Positions 35-11,134 of a stretch of 11,134 nucleotides of DNA are shown one piece after another (the first letter of the stretch is position 1; the number at the start of each line of letters is the position of its first letter). The translations under genes and the position numbers were made by a program. The stretch is from a virus, in the UHGV virus genome UHGV-1789692. One strand, given 5' to 3'. The notes under the pieces are model-generated. The model had not been told where the DNA came from. It worked only from the letters and a program-made list of their open reading frames with translations, and did not search any database.

Positions 35-191
35 ATGTTGGATATTGTTCAGGGTCATTAATAATTTTACTTATAGTTGTTTTACCTGCACCATTAGCTC
101 CATATAAATAGTTAAATTTAGAAAGCCCATGTAAAAGCTGAGTAGGGCCATTATATGAGCCTACTTTGTCAATAACTACCTCTTCAATCAT
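35..191 (-). CDS. Partial CDS (N-terminal 52 codons; rest lost at contig edge): P-loop NTPase with Walker A motif, candidate defence-type ATPase
   Basis: ATG at 191 (minus strand) preceded by GAGGAT; translation MIEEVVIDKVGSYNGPTQLLHGLSKFNYLYGANGAGKTTISKIINDPEQYPT contains a canonical Walker A (GANGAGKTT). The gene is AT-rich relative to the neighbouring prophage genes and runs into the adapter. Confidence 0.6.
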
Positions 192-1133: not shown

Positions 1134-3548
1134 TTAATACAGGTTCCGCCACTGATCATCTTCCTGCAAACGCTGGTTCCGATAGAAGATACGCAGGCCT
1201 GCTCCTGACGGAATACTGCCTCCGCGAAGGAGTAAATCGACCTCTTTCTCGCTGCCATCAAATCCTCTGGACTTCAGCTCATACACGAGCTGCAGTCGCT
1301 GATGGTCTGTAATTCGCTGTTTGTAGTCTTTACGCCGTTTCGGTTTCACCAGGCGTAACCTTGCTGCCAGTTCCCGGCGCTCTTTTTTGCTCATACTGTG
1401 CAGGTAATCGTGCAACTCCTTGTCATCCATGCTGGTAATGTCCGTTCTGGGGTCCCCATCAGCTGATTTATCTTTCTCCTGTTGGTTCAAATTTTCAGCA
1501 AGGGGACAGTTATTGCCACGAGTCCAAGGGGCGCAAGCGCCCTGGTCGGCTGCCGCCTCCTGAACGTCAACGGCCTTACGAACCATTTTCCACTTCACGG
1601 CATGAGTGCAGATTTTGCCCTCTGCAATGGGTGACCAGATGCCATAAATACGAATGCCGTGATCGCCATAGGCGGTCGGCTCTTCGTTGATTTCATAAGC
1701 GGTTCTGATGAGGTGATATTTGCGGGGGACCAGTACGCCGCCCTGCTTCATGATGTAGGTGGCAAAACAACCAGCATCAGCTGCAGCCAGAATGGCATCA
1801 AGGCGCGGGTTATCCAGTACCGGCGCACCTGCTTTTTTGTCACCCTGTTGCCTTGCCGCCTGACCAGCCAGCAATCGCAGTTCACGGTAAGCCTGACGCC
1901 CCGGAATGCCAAAGAAGCGGAATTGCTGAACACGATGCAGAGACGCCCAGGCATTAACGTATTCAGCGTTATCACGCAGAGATTTACCCGTTTCCTTGCT
2001 GATCTCGCCAGCCAGACCACGCCCGTCAATGTTCTTACTGATGTATTTCGCGATGTAGCTAGTCGGCGTTCCTTTGCGCGGGTTTATCAGCTCAGACTTA
2101 AAGCGTGGCCCCGTGTTATTACCCAGCTCCTCGCGGTCTTCACGAATGGCAAACTTACGCAACAAAGCAGTAATGGTGCGGCGATCTTTTTTGCGCATAA
2201 AACACAACAGGTGCCAGTGAACTGTACCGTCATGATGCGGCTCAGCCACCCGCACGCCATACCAGCGCAATCCGGCTTTGTGCATCGCCTTACGAAATGC
2301 AGCAAACATGCCGACCAGATAATCACTGCTTTGTCTTACCGTCGTATTTGTCCAGGTCGGGTTGGGCCTGCCGTTATTTAGCGTGGAATGGAAACGTGAC
2401 GGACAGGTGATGGTGTAGAAAACGGCGCAGTCACCGCGCATTTCCGCGATAAGCTCCAGACCTTTAACACAGGCCATCATCTCATTGCGGCGATGCGCAG
2501 GGTTGCTGCAGCTGGCGTTTACCACATCCTCCATGTCCAGCGTGTCGCCGTCTTCGTTCACCAGTTCATGAGAACGGAAAAACTCCAGCGACTTACGGCG
2601 CTGCTCACGTTTATGCATCACGGCTTCATAGCTGACATAGGGAGATGCTTTTTTGCTGACCAGGCAAACAGCACGCAACTGCTCTTCCCGCCATTCGCAA
2701 CGCATCTTCCATAATTTCCGGTACCACCAATCGGCGCACAACATACGCGCCAGCGAACCCGGAATGAGTTCATAGGGCACGGGTTTACGGCGGTTTCTTT
2801 TCCGGCGGAGTTGCTCAAACGCAGGCGGTATGACATCCAGTCGCAGGGTTTCTGCTGCCACCTTTTCCCATGTCTTGCGGATTTCTTCTGGCTTAACGTC
2901 ATCGGTGGCATACAAATCGCCACAAGCTGCATCAAGGCACATGCTCATATGCGCAGCAACAAGGGTGGACAGGCGTTTCACCTGATCCTGACTCATTTCA
3001 GGCAGAATCAGCAGGCCGTCCAGCCCTTCATGGCTTGCCATAAAGCGAAAAGAAGTGGATAGCTGACTGTCGCGTACATGCTCCAGCCGTTCCAGACATG
3101 GCTTAATCGTCTCACGCAAATAGCGGGAATAAGCCTTTGGCCTGCCAAGGCTGCTGAAGTATTCAATACGTTGCATCAGCGGCCTGCTGATATGGGAAGG
3201 CTGGGCGTTAACGTCTGCCAGAATGACCATGTCCGGGTTAAAACGCTGCTGCTCATGCGCCAACTTTGCCCGGCTAATGAGCTTATCCTGCTCCATTTCG
3301 CGCTGGACAGGATCACGGGATTCATTAAAGAAATAACGCTCCCAAACCTGATCACTCAGTGCCTCGCGGCGCAGTTGTTCCTGCTCGTTATCGGCAGCGT
3401 ACAGAGTGATCAGGTTTGAAAGCGCAGAAACCGGCGCAACTTCCGCCGGGTCCAGATAAGGGTTAATAGCCTTTTTCGGGCTGTTCCATGAGAATGCTGC
3501 GGCGGCCTCGTTAAAGCCGCTGCAGTTGTTCATATCAGCATGGCTCAT
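1134..3548 (-). CDS. Rolling-circle replication initiator of the phage P2 gpA family (804 aa)
   Basis: Large ORF with ATG at 3548; contains an HUH motif ([10 protein letters not shown]) followed by a paired-tyrosine active-site motif ([13 protein letters not shown]-x-x-K-Y as in phiX174/P2 A proteins). Sits downstream of the immunity and early genes as in P2/186. Its start overlaps the Dam stop (ATGA). Confidence 0.85.
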
Positions 3549-6530: not shown

Positions 6531-6773
6531 TTACTTACCAACAATGACGCGGAAGTTGGAATGACCGAGGGATTCACGGACCTGATCAGTTTTGTACATC
6601 AGATAACGAAGGCTTACGCGGCCTTTATTTTTTTCTTTCTTGACCATGTACTTAGCAAGTTGACCATGGTGAATTTTTTGGTAAACAGAGCCACGGGAAA
6701 TGCCCTCCCACTCTGCGAACTCTGCAGGCGTAGCCATCTCTTTTGGTACACGAATTGAAATATCAGTACTCAT
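6531..6773 (-). CDS. Apl/Cox-like small HTH excisionase and transcriptional regulator (80 aa)
   Basis: First gene of the leftward lytic operon, divergent from the CI-like gene; small basic protein with an HTH-like segment (ATPAEFAEWEGISRGSVYQKIHHGQLAK). The RBS before the 6773 ATG is weak, so the start is uncertain. Confidence 0.55.
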   Translation of the reverse strand: MSTDISIRVPKEMATPAEFAEWEGISRGSVYQKIHHGQLAKYMVKKEKNKGRVSLRYLMYKTDQVRESLGHSNFRVIVGK

Positions 6774-6894: not shown

Positions 6895-7527
6895 ATGTTA
6901 AACATCAGAATGGGTTCCGATACGGGAGGTAAGGCAGCTATTGAGAGGCTGCTTGAGGCTTATGGATTCACAACTAAGCAGGCATTAAGCGAGCACCTGA
7001 ATGTCTCAAAAAGTACTATGGCAAACAGAGTGTTACGTGACAGTTTTCCTGCTGACTGGATAATTCAGTGTGCACTAGAAACCGGTGTTTCGTTACTTTG
7101 GTTAGCCACTGGACAGGGAAGCATGAAAGAAGGATACGAGCCTGAGAAAAGATCTCATAACGAGAACAAACAAGCAATTAAACCGTTATCCAAACTCATA
7201 ACTCCATCTATTCCTAAAGGAACCTTGGAAAATGGACAACTCAGTATTGATGAAGAGATTTTCCTAGACCACAGCATATTACCTGCAGATTATGAAGAAT
7301 CGATGTTCTTAGAAACCCCTACTGATTGTTATCTCATCGATAAATCAGTTAAACAAGTCAGCAATGGATTCTGGCTTATCAATATTGATGGAATGATTAT
7401 TATTGCAAAAATCATGCGGATTCCCGGCAATAAGATTGTAGTAAATCAAGATGAAGCGTCTTTCGAGTGCTCTGCTGATGATGTGGAAGTTATTGGGCGT
7501 GCAGTCAAAGTAATAAAGAGTATCTAA
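6895..7527 (+). CDS. cI: CI-like immunity repressor, phage 186 type (210 aa)
   Basis: ATG at 6895 with GGAGA 7 nt upstream; N-terminal HTH (TTKQALSEHLNVSKSTMANRV) followed by the phage-repressor phrase LLWLATGQG; lies immediately upstream of and co-oriented with int, divergent from the Apl/CII operon, as in 186. Confidence 0.7.
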   Translation: MLNIRMGSDTGGKAAIERLLEAYGFTTKQALSEHLNVSKSTMANRVLRDSFPADWIIQCALETGVSLLWLATGQGSMKEGYEPEKRSHNENKQAIKPLSKLITPSIPKGTLENGQLSIDEEIFLDHSILPADYEESMFLETPTDCYLIDKSVKQVSNGFWLINIDGMIIIAKIMRIPGNKIVVNQDEASFECSADDVEVIGRAVKVIKSI

Positions 7528-7529
7528 AC

Positions 7530-8546
7530 ATGACTGTCAGAAAACAGCCAAACGGTAAATGGTTGTGCGAGTGCTATCCCAATGGACGCAATGGCAAGCG
7601 CGTGCGTAAGCAATTTGCTACGAAAGGCGAAGCCATTGCTTTTGAAAGCTTCACAATGGAAGAAGTGAACAAAAAACCATGGCTGGGGGAAAAGGAAGAT
7701 CGGCGACACCTATCAGAATTAATTGAGCAGTGGTATTCCCTGTATGGTCAAACACTCGCAGACCCCAAGCGCCTCATAGCGAAACTTAGAATTATCTGTA
7801 ATGGTCTAGGCGATCCCATCGCTTCAGAACTGACAGCCGGTGACTTTACGAAATACCGCGAAGCACGGTTAAAAGGTGAAGTACGAAATGAAGATGGCAC
7901 GTTTATGTCGCCCGTTAAGCCCCGCACGGTAAACCTTGAACAGCGCAATCTATCATCTGTTTTTGGTACACTGAAAAAGCTGGGCCACTGGTCAGCCCCC
8001 AACCCGCTTGCTGGGCTGCCAACATTTAAAATTGCTGAGAGTGAATTGGCGTTCCTGACCCCGGAAGAAATTAAACGTCTGCTGGATGCCTGCGCCGATT
8101 CTCAAAGCTCCAGCCTGCTTTTGATTGCAAAAATATGCCTGGCCACCGGCGCACGCTGGAGCGAAGCCGAAAACCTGCAGAGTCATCAGGTATCAAAATA
8201 CCGTATCACTTATACCAAGACCAAAGGCAAGAAAAACCGAACTGTGCCTATTTCTAAGGATTTATATGAAGAACTGCCTAAGAATAGGGGGAAGTTATTC
8301 ACCCCATGCAGAAAAGCCTTTGAGCGTGCAGTAAAGCGGGCTGGTATCGATCTGCCAGAGGGTCAATGTACTCACGTTCTGCGTCATACATTCGCTAGCC
8401 ATTTTATGATGAATGGTGGAAACATATTGGTTTTGCGGGATATCCTAGGACATTCAGATATAAAAATGACCATGGTCTATGCACACTTCGCCCCAGACCA
8501 TTTAGAAGATGCCGTAACTAAAAATCCTTTATTTAATTTGAGGTAA
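7530..8546 (+). CDS. int: P2-type tyrosine integrase (338 aa)
   Basis: N-terminus ...GRNGKRVRKQFATKGEAIAFE parallels recalled P2 Int (...GRNGKRIRRKFDKKSEAVAFE); catalytic region CLATGARWSEAE, HVLRHTFASHFMMNGGNILVLRDILGHSDIKMTMVYAHF contains the R...H-x-x-R...Y tyrosine-recombinase signature. Starts 2 nt after the CI-like stop. Confidence 0.9.
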   Translation: MTVRKQPNGKWLCECYPNGRNGKRVRKQFATKGEAIAFESFTMEEVNKKPWLGEKEDRRHLSELIEQWYSLYGQTLADPKRLIAKLRIICNGLGDPIASELTAGDFTKYREARLKGEVRNEDGTFMSPVKPRTVNLEQRNLSSVFGTLKKLGHWSAPNPLAGLPTFKIAESELAFLTPEEIKRLLDACADSQSSSLLLIAKICLATGARWSEAENLQSHQVSKYRITYTKTKGKKNRTVPISKDLYEELPKNRGKLFTPCRKAFERAVKRAGIDLPEGQCTHVLRHTFASHFMMNGGNILVLRDILGHSDIKMTMVYAHFAPDHLEDAVTKNPLFNLR

Positions 8547-8556
8547 GTAGTAATTT

Positions 8557-9225
8557 ATGAATAGCGAACTAGAGTTACTTATAAAAATATTATTCCCTTC
8601 CCTATCTGCCATTATATCCTTATTAGGGCTTAAAACAGGGTGGACTTATAAAAAAGACAAACTATTCACATCACGTAAAAACATTAGCGAATTTTCATAT
8701 CAAATGTATAAAAGCAGTGAAGATCCGACCTTCAAAAAACTGGCGGAAGATTACGGCATTGCTGCATTAACCAAAGATAACACATTGACAAAAAAACAAA
8801 GATTAATATTACTCAACACAACAAACCCCGTTAGCGATATAGATGATTATTCCAAATGTCAAAGTCTAATTTCCATTACCACCCATAAAGAAATATTCGC
8901 ATGGAATAAAAAAAGATATAAATACAGCATATATCTGTCTCTTATACACATTATAACAACTCTAATTTACTTCATGGGCAGTCTCGTCGTAGCACTTCCT
9001 TTCAGTTATTCTGTTGTAGTAAGTGCTAAGATGATGGAGAAGATAAACCATCTAACTACTTGGCAATACTTTGGTTTAAGCAGCTATTTTGTGGTATCGG
9101 GAGTAGCAATATGCTTTATCTGCCTAGATAAGCTCTCCAAGATTAAGATCGCCGAGAGATTAATCGTTTCAAATAGGCGTTTAGGCGACAAATGCAGTGG
9201 CGGCACTTTGGCGGCAGAAAGTTAA
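8557..9225 (+). CDS. AT-rich cargo gene: 222-aa predicted multi-pass membrane protein of unknown function, between int and the att core
   Basis: ATG 11 nt after the int stop, same strand; visibly much more AT-rich than the flanking prophage genes; hydrophobic segments LIKILFPSLSAIISLLGL (N-terminal), YSIYLSLIHIITTLIYFMGSLVVALPF and YFGLSSYFVVSGVAICFICL separated by charged, K-rich soluble regions. No family recognised. Confidence 0.65.
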   Translation: MNSELELLIKILFPSLSAIISLLGLKTGWTYKKDKLFTSRKNISEFSYQMYKSSEDPTFKKLAEDYGIAALTKDNTLTKKQRLILLNTTNPVSDIDDYSKCQSLISITTHKEIFAWNKKRYKYSIYLSLIHIITTLIYFMGSLVVALPFSYSVVVSAKMMEKINHLTTWQYFGLSSYFVVSGVAICFICLDKLSKIKIAERLIVSNRRLGDKCSGGTLAAES

Positions 9226-9310
9226 AAACCCATAAAACGGACAGACACCGCATAAATCTAACCAACTGAAAATCAAAGCAAATCATTGTTTTTACAGACA
9301 TTGAAATGCT

Positions 9311-9355
9311 ATGTAGGAATTTCGGACGCGGGTTCAACTCCCGCCAGCTCCACCA
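9311..9355 (+). other. ssrA: 3'-terminal ~45 nt of ssrA (tmRNA): prophage attachment-site core, a partial duplicate and not a complete gene
   Basis: ATGTAGGAATTTCGGACGCGGGTTCAACTCCCGCCAGCTCCACCA matches the recalled 3' end of E. coli tmRNA (T-arm GCGGG-TTCAACT-CCCGC, acceptor 3' strand, discriminator A, CCA). Sequence upstream of 9311 does not continue the tmRNA, so only the 3' fragment is present. The exact left boundary is from memory. Confidence 0.75.
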
Positions 9356-9482
9356 ATCATGATTGGACGGTGTAAGGACTACACCAACAAAAACAGGAAG
9401 TTATAAGTCTCAGCAGGACACCGACCAGACGGTGAGGAGACAAAAAAGGATACGCAACGGAGTCGCGACTCCCTATGACATT

Positions 9483-9510
9483 AAAGCCCGCTGATGCGGG
9501 CTTTTTTATT
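9483..9510 (+). terminator. Rho-independent terminator downstream of the ssrA fragment
   Basis: Stem GCCCGC / GCGGGC (9486-9491 / 9496-9501) with loop TGAT, followed by TTTTTTATT. Confidence 0.65.
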
Positions 9511-9938
9511 GGTCCTGACCCGCCCTGAATAGAATTCATCCAATTACAGTCCAGACATATACAGTATCCCTCAGCTCAGTATCAGCTTCTCGACAAATGG
9601 TCACTGTTATTTACCCGTTGCCAGAAAGAGAATAATTTGCCCCCATAGCCAGCCTTCCTGGAATCTGTATATTCATTAATATTGTTATCGATTCCATCAA
9701 GTAACATAGGTTGGATGCGATTGATCTTACTCACATTAGTCGACACGGAACTCAGTAAGTTGAACTCTGAAAAAGCAGTTTAAATAGCATTTAAACAAAT
9801 GCCACCAGTTCGAAAAAGAGTATAAGCACACTTAATATATTGTTTTAATTATTCATTTCCTTTCAACCCAATTCTTATCCCTCACATTATTTGTTATTAA
9901 TTTGTTGTTTTTGATCACAATAAGAAAACAATATGTAA

Positions 9939-11015
<1,077 letters not shown>

Positions 11016-11034: not shown

Positions 11035-11107
11035 ATGTATGATTTTGTGATTATTGGCGGCGGCATCATCGGCATGTCGACCGCCATGCAACTGATTGAT
11101 GTTTATC
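11035..11107 (+). CDS. lhgO: LhgO (YgaF) L-2-hydroxyglutarate oxidase/dehydrogenase, first 24 codons only (cut off by adapter)
   Basis: MYDFVIIGGGIIGMSTAMQLIDVY: FAD-binding GxGxxG N-terminus directly downstream of csiD; the reading frame runs into the adapter at 11108. Confidence 0.75.
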
Positions 11108-11134
11108 CTGTCTCTTATACACATCTCCGAGCCC
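11108..11134. other. Illumina Nextera adapter, reverse complement (CTGTCTCTTATACACATCTCCGAGCCC); technical artefact
   Basis: Exact reverse complement of the mosaic-end adapter at the 5' end of the contig; the track ORF 10927..11124 begins with MCIRDR, the usual translation of this adapter. Confidence 0.95.

Follow-up and report, generated by a model that had tools for sequence, protein, structure and literature searches.

The segment at positions 9190–9356 of the DNA analysed here is identified with high confidence as attR, the right end of a P2-like, 186/Fels-2-type prophage occupying the 3' end of ssrA in an Escherichia coli with a B2-type ssrA-glaH region. This DNA (hereafter the window, 11,134 nt) is the entire contig NODE_674_length_11134_cov_6.24533 of the ENA assembly ERZ652173, which derives from a metagenome and has 6.2x coverage. 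About 9.3 kb of a possibly incomplete prophage is present, and the contig contains a single junction, composed of the following elements.

9190–9310, plus strand: P arm of attR, phage-derived, conserved among phages using this core and aligning with the P arm of the attP of Escherichia phage Cartapus
9198–9205 and 9209–9216, plus strand: two direct arm-type repeats (TGGCGGCA), 11 bp apart from start to start, putatively integrase-binding
9311–9356, plus strand: att core, comprising the 45-nt ssrA 3' end (T arm, acceptor 3' strand and CCA) and one further base, as defined by a four-way alignment, the Rfam alignment and annotated ssrA
9357–10037, plus strand: B' arm, the native ssrA-glaH intergenic region, identical to the DNA directly after intact ssrA in E. 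coli Nissle 1917

The att core

Positions 9311–9355 (ATGTAGGAATTTCGGACGCGGGTTCAACTCCCGCCAGCTCCACCA) match the final 45 nt of the annotated ssrA of E. coli strains 22AR0750 and Nissle 1917 at 45 of 45 nt. The direct repeat shared with attL is 46 nt long, since A9356 is common to both prophage ends. Only one copy of the core is found in the window. A 28-nt part of it, searched with up to three mismatches, gave this one match in the window and none in 200 shuffles, by which chance similarity is ruled out. ARAGORN, applied to the whole window, predicted no tmRNA or tRNA gene, and the Rfam tmRNA model scored 30 bits against a gathering score of 47, with high posterior values confined to the T arm, the acceptor strand and the CCA; the tmRNA body is thus truly absent. 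A complete ssrA at the junction was also considered and rejected, as the 3' end stands alone, lacking the 5' acceptor strand, the tag reading frame and the pseudoknots. The first-pass annotation, made from the sequence of the window, had described a 45-nt copy of the tmRNA 3' end whose upstream body is replaced by prophage DNA, and this description is borne out: aligned to reference ssrA, the segment is identical to the 3' end, no complete ssrA spans the position, and the sequence to the left of 9311 belongs to the phage.

It is extremely improbable that the fragment forms part of a functional RNA gene, such as a truncated, two-piece or permuted tmRNA or a tRNA-like element. The Rfam model tmRNA_permuted does give a weak match at 9296–9494 (20.7 bits, E = 0.68), and read-through transcription of the fragment is possible, as no plus-strand terminator is found from orf222 to 9483. 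However, 20.7 bits is far under the gathering score of 47, ARAGORN returns nothing, the 45-nt piece folds no better than its shuffles (z = −0.22), the parts listed above are missing from the fragment, and relatives retain an intact ssrA at attL. Enterobacteria use a one-piece tmRNA, which also counts against such a gene.

As an att core, the fragment beside host DNA is the original host gene end, at least in its 3' part, while the end of the intact gene in the lysogen is phage-supplied. The 45 nt represent the block of identity between attP and attB, inside which the crossover would take place; candidate positions are the T stem-loop, which is symmetric (GCGGG-TTCAACT-CCCGC), and the 5' portion of the 45 nt. 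The search for the core used the exact string and the copies compared do not differ, so that polymorphism offers no means of mapping the crossover. The sole core variant seen is that of H22 (NZ_CP120563), the nearest prophage relative (99.4% identity), whose attR core has a 5-nt deletion (CTCCA). The two att cores of H22 are therefore no longer identical, which might hamper its excision.

The four att sites in complete genomes

The predicted unoccupied site was built by joining the last 200 nt of ssrA to window positions 9356–9655 (500 nt). This construct is present at 100% identity over 500 nt in Nissle 1917, ATCC 25922, ABU 83972, NRG 857C and many other strains, each with a single copy of the ssrA end, and at least 80% of it is covered in 710 of 5426 complete E. 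coli genomes. The gene order in Nissle 1917 is smpB, ssrA, a 683-bp spacer and glaH. To the right of the core, the host flank of the window (from 9356 up to glaH) does not differ from the sequence directly after the intact ssrA of Nissle 1917; the phage side matches Peduoviridae genomes.

The same junction as in the window is found in 79 complete E. coli genomes. Window positions 9200–9560 are reproduced at 100% identity in one of them (NZ_CP195454, strain 22AR0750) and at 98.6–99.7% in two more. The prophage of 22AR0750 shares 95–96% identity with the early region of the window and is arranged in the order intact ssrA, tail, lysis, head and replication genes, cI, int, orf222 and ssrA fragment. 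Its two cores lie 32.5 kb apart, and the intact ssrA is joined to a P' arm, which in this joint (attL) includes …CCACCAAATAAATCAAGGGGTTACGTGAAAGCGTAGCCCC…. In the free phage Cartapus, the core is flanked by both arms (attP); int and a cargo gene lie to one side of it, ogr and a small gene to the other, and the end of the record of Salmonella phage RE-2010 shows the same structure. In the four-way alignment, attB is B-O-B', attP is P-O-P', attL is B-O-P' and attR, represented by the window, is P-O-B', where O is the 46-nt core. The earlier reading of the locus as an att core at a phage/host boundary in ssrA is supported by this comparison. The two counterparts that it called for also exist, namely a prophage-free attB in relatives, recovered by genome comparison at 100% identity in Nissle 1917, ATCC 25922, ABU 83972 and others, and an intact ssrA with the same 3' end at the far prophage end, seen in the complete relative NZ_CP195454. 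In the source of the contig, the intact ssrA and the second junction would lie past the left end of the window, as predicted in the first-pass annotation. Related phage sequence was found in 1350 of the 5426 complete E. coli genomes.

Adapter-derived bases

Adapter sequence occurs at positions 1–34, 8935–8951 and 11108–11134 of the window. The first of these reads GTCTCGTGGGCTCGGAGATGTGTATAAGAGACAG and the last is the start of its reverse complement; both are taken here to be the Nextera transposase adapter. The contig ends thus mark the start of untrimmed adapter and are not a biological boundary. The internal block at 8935–8951 is a 17-nt sequence (CTGTCTCTTATACACAT) the same as the Tn5 mosaic-end adapter, in place of which H22 and 22AR0750 have AGAAAATTAATAAAAAT of equal length. 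All 10 mismatches to H22, the best of the 29 genomes matching orf222, fall in this block, and the orf222 product of the window reads …YLSLIHI… instead of …YRKLIKI…, the former version being on record for this contig only. On these grounds, the block is almost certainly an adapter-derived consensus error at about 6x coverage that corrupts the orf222 translation.

Such adapter bases at both ends and within a metagenomic contig of 6.2x coverage could also suggest that the junction is an assembly chimera of phage and host contigs. This is very unlikely, as positions 9200–9560 recur without a difference in a complete RefSeq chromosome and nearly so in the two other genomes given above, and an adapter-free zone of at least 350 nt surrounds the att core.

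P arm, arm repeats and integrase clades

The motif TGGCGRCA has exactly two matches in the window, which are the two repeats of the P arm. For comparison, 121 exact-core occurrences were taken from IMG/VR and their upstream sequences were compared. They include 52 distinct upstream sequences that are not ssrA, and the TGGCGRCA pair is located at exactly −113/−102 in 42 of these. Mean pairwise identity among 43 distinct P arms is 0.70–0.75 from −120 to −1 and 0.35 upstream of −121, a drop that places the boundary of the P arm near window position 9190. Seven further distinct arms carry another motif pair, GATCCACA/TGTCCAC, at the equivalent position.

The type of repeat varies with the integrase. 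Identity to the integrase of the window is 90–99% at all 38 TGGCGRCA loci, where this clade always adjoins the 45-nt core, and 68–72% at all eight GATCCACA/TGTCCAC loci. The latter (IMG/VR L013, L023, L030, L045, L048, L066, L098 and L108) represent a second integrase clade with the same 45-nt core and P2-type repeats; the two clades, with different repeats beside the same core, thus exhibit two arm-site specificities for one core. Two types of arm repeat, tgTGGaCa (P2 type) and tgccGCCActt (186 type), have been described in P2-like phages (Nilsson and Haggård-Ljungquist, PMC3448106). The reverse complements of 9196–9205 and 9207–9216 (TGCCGCCACT and TGCCGCCAAA, respectively) fit the 186-type consensus, while the minority motif GATCCACA/TGTCCAC fits the P2-type consensus. 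Considering their conservation, their co-variation with the integrase clade and the published consensus, the TGGCGRCA repeats are very probably arm-type integrase-binding sites. Cartapus likewise contains the pair 94 nt upstream of its core, the intervening sequence having diverged, and the P' arm, which lies outside the window and was found in the attL of the relative and in attP, contains a further pair with equal spacing and an inverted copy. A strict IHF consensus (WATCAANNNNTTR) has no match in the window, and no IHF site is therefore proposed.

The ssrA fragment might also be regarded as the scar of an older element, with the true end of the P2-like prophage elsewhere. The gene is used repeatedly: up to five copies of the ssrA end occur in some genomes, and some P2-like attR cores in IMG/VR are followed by the left end of another element (e.g. 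AAATTCTCCATCGGTGATTACC...). Against this, the left flank of the core in the window shows the P arm that is conserved in this integrase clade, its repeats lying at the canonical distance, the sequence to the right is the exact native flank of the unoccupied site, and the window has a single copy of the core. A scar is accordingly a most improbable explanation.

Genes of the prophage

1134–3548, minus strand: gpA, replication endonuclease
6531–6773, minus strand: Cox/Apl-like excisionase and switch repressor, 80 aa; matches phrog_6912 'excisionase' (E = 4e-39) and phrog_575 'Cox-like excisionase and repressor' (E = 5e-28)
6895–7527, plus strand: CI-type immunity repressor, 210 aa; matches Pfam Phage_CI_repr (E = 2e-30) and Phage_CI_C (E = 7e-31), and is CI in relatives
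7530–8546, plus strand, directed toward the junction: tyrosine integrase of the 186/Fels-2 type, 338 aa; matches Pfam Int_N (E = 1e-28) and Phage_integrase (E = 1e-25)
8557–9225, plus strand: orf222, cargo gene in the int-att slot, 222 aa; full-length match to phrog_21256, a family without assigned function

The minus-strand genes between gpA and the excisionase gene encode a Dam methylase, DUF3850, TraR/DksA, DUF2732 and DUF5347 proteins and CII. The product of 6531–6773, whose Cartapus homologue carries the same annotation, is likely the directionality factor for excision, judging from these matches. The cI gene opens a transcription unit of cI, int and cargo gene. The integrase shares 92–96% identity with the integrases of Salmonella SEN8 and Klebsiella Kp4865-2, and 40% with P2 Int.

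The cargo gene orf222 has a low GC content (~33%), and its product contains hydrophobic stretches at the N terminus and toward the C terminus. Its last codons overlap the P arm and the arm repeats. Searches of orf222 against Pfam and PADLOC yielded no match, and only 29 of the 5426 complete E. coli genomes have the gene. In other phages of this integrase clade, the same slot contains no gene or a different one, such as that for a RES-domain protein in Cartapus. A recent survey counts the int-att interval among the minor defence hotspots in P2-like phages (PMC13586616).

At the other end of the window, beyond DinI (548–853), positions 36–191 (minus strand) encode the N-terminal 52 aa of a P-loop ATPase with the Walker A motif GANGAGKT, truncated where the contig stops. 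The fragment is similar to the N-terminal part of PDC-S06, which PADLOC lists as a candidate defence family (E = 3e-16). In relatives, the stretch from gpA/DinI to the portal gene contains variable genes: at the position of the ATPase, H22 encodes a P-loop NTPase, NZ_OZ547033 a HEPN protein and RE-2010 an AIPR protein.

The host side

9483–9510, plus strand: host intrinsic terminator, located by terminator scan and fold, natively 128 nt downstream of ssrA and now severed from it
10038–11015, plus strand: csiD/glaH, host gene for glutarate dioxygenase, 325 aa; collinear with annotated glaH in RefSeq genomes, with Pfam CsiD recorded for the product
11035–11107, plus strand: 5' end of the host gene lhgO, truncated where the contig stops; lhgO has the collinear position in 22AR0750 and Nissle 1917

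Both downstream features named in the first-pass annotation, a terminator at 9483–9510 and csiD about 680 bp downstream, are present. The terminator has a 9-bp stem (9483–9504) with a run of T after it and a folding energy of −17.5 kcal/mol (z = −4.0), and csiD starts at 10038, 683 bp past the CCA end. The terminator is kept beside attR in strains whose DNA beyond it differs. In many genomes that are not of the B2 type, the match to the window ends just past the terminator (~9506–9507), and in E. coli 2012EL-2448, the one such genome examined, ypjA-type autotransporter remnants, an IS3 element, ypjC and tRNA-Ile replace the short glaH spacer. The ~150 bp from ssrA to the terminator are thus conserved host DNA, and the region beyond is variable. 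Judged by this flank, the host of the contig is an E. coli with a short, B2-type ssrA-glaH region.

Proposed integration and exchange of terminators

In the proposed mechanism, attP carries the exact last 45 nt of ssrA (46 nt common to both) between the int-side P arm and the P' arm. The tyrosine integrase (7530–8546), probably bound at the paired TGGCGRCA repeats on both arms, would recombine attP with the identical stretch of ssrA, yielding attL and attR. In attL, the ssrA body would be followed by the core and the P' arm, leaving ssrA at full length with a phage terminator 8 nt past the CCA, and in attR, as the window shows, the core stands between the P arm and the native host flank. The displaced gene end and the native terminator (9483–9510) are then stranded upstream of csiD/glaH. 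Excision would be the reversal of this reaction by Int together with the Cox/Apl-like protein (6531–6773). At the level of sequence, the anatomy of the junction and the relations among attB, attP, attL and attR are established, with recombination in the shared 46 nt accounting for attL and attR; we infer the catalysis by Int through arm and core sites and the direction of excision by Cox/Apl. In the examined lysogenic relative 22AR0750, ssrA is of full length, and the phage terminator located 8 nt past the CCA in attL has a 12-bp stem (z = −4.8).

On the plus strand, a consensus scan from the stop codon of orf222 (9225) to 9483 revealed no terminator-like site, and the cI-int-orf222 transcript of the lysogen could therefore read through the att core. 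Integration would by this route exchange terminators between ssrA and the lysogeny operon, the lysogeny transcript ending at the former ssrA terminator and that of the free phage at the terminator which later serves ssrA. On this reading, which we consider unlikely, the displaced ssrA end is not inert, and the 3' end, stability or expression of the int/cargo mRNA and of tmRNA could, speculatively, vary with the integration state.

Relation to known phages and ssrA elements

Salmonella phage RE-2010 (Felsduovirus) shares 95.6% nucleotide identity over 82% of the phage part of the window, together with the 45-nt core and the order cI-int-cargo-att. It differs in its cargo gene, which encodes a 401-aa protein in place of orf222, in the sequence from the repeats to the core, which has diverged, and in its host, which is E. 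coli for the window. Cartapus (Peduoviridae, Elveevirus), a free phage, shares 94.5% identity over 81% of the phage part; its attP has an identical core and a P' arm with a terminator as at the attL of lysogens, but it carries the RES-domain cargo instead of orf222 and another hotspot gene between gpA and the portal gene.

In E. coli K-12, the cryptic prophage CP4-57 uses the 3' end of ssrA as well. It is a different type of element with a different integrase, and its int adjoins the intact ssrA, whereas int in the clade of the window is located at the end far from the intact gene. In IMG/VR, many P2-like attR cores (e.g. L037, L043, L051, L058 and L060) are followed by AAATTCTCCATCGGTGATTACCAGAGTCATCCGATGAAGT, not by the native flank. 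This sequence may be where the CP4-57-type element of K-12 begins on its left; if so, two elements would occupy ssrA in tandem at these loci.

The target gene ssrA is shared with the Salmonella phages Fels-2, SopEPhi and ELPhiS/RE-2010 (Felsduovirus). That SopEPhi and Fels-2 integrate into ssrA is established (Pelludat et al. 2003, cited through PMC3448106), and reports of the same exist for two further phages, ELPhiS of S. Enteritidis LK5 and PhiDub5 of S. Dublin (PMC4454671). Coliphage 186 resembles the phage of the window in its CI/Apl-type switch, its RNA-gene target, its long identity block that restores the gene and its tgccGCCActt arm repeats (PMC3448106), but its targets are tRNA-Ile genes instead of ssrA.

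Implications

The junction is an ordinary, textbook attR, and the integration of P2-like phages into ssrA has already been published. Its value is one of bookkeeping alone, and it raises no fresh question on integration or tmRNA biology. It sets the right boundary of the prophage at 9311–9356 and places the phage among the 186/Fels-2-type members of the P2-like family (Peduoviridae), and by this assignment orf222 is marked as phage cargo in the int-att slot.
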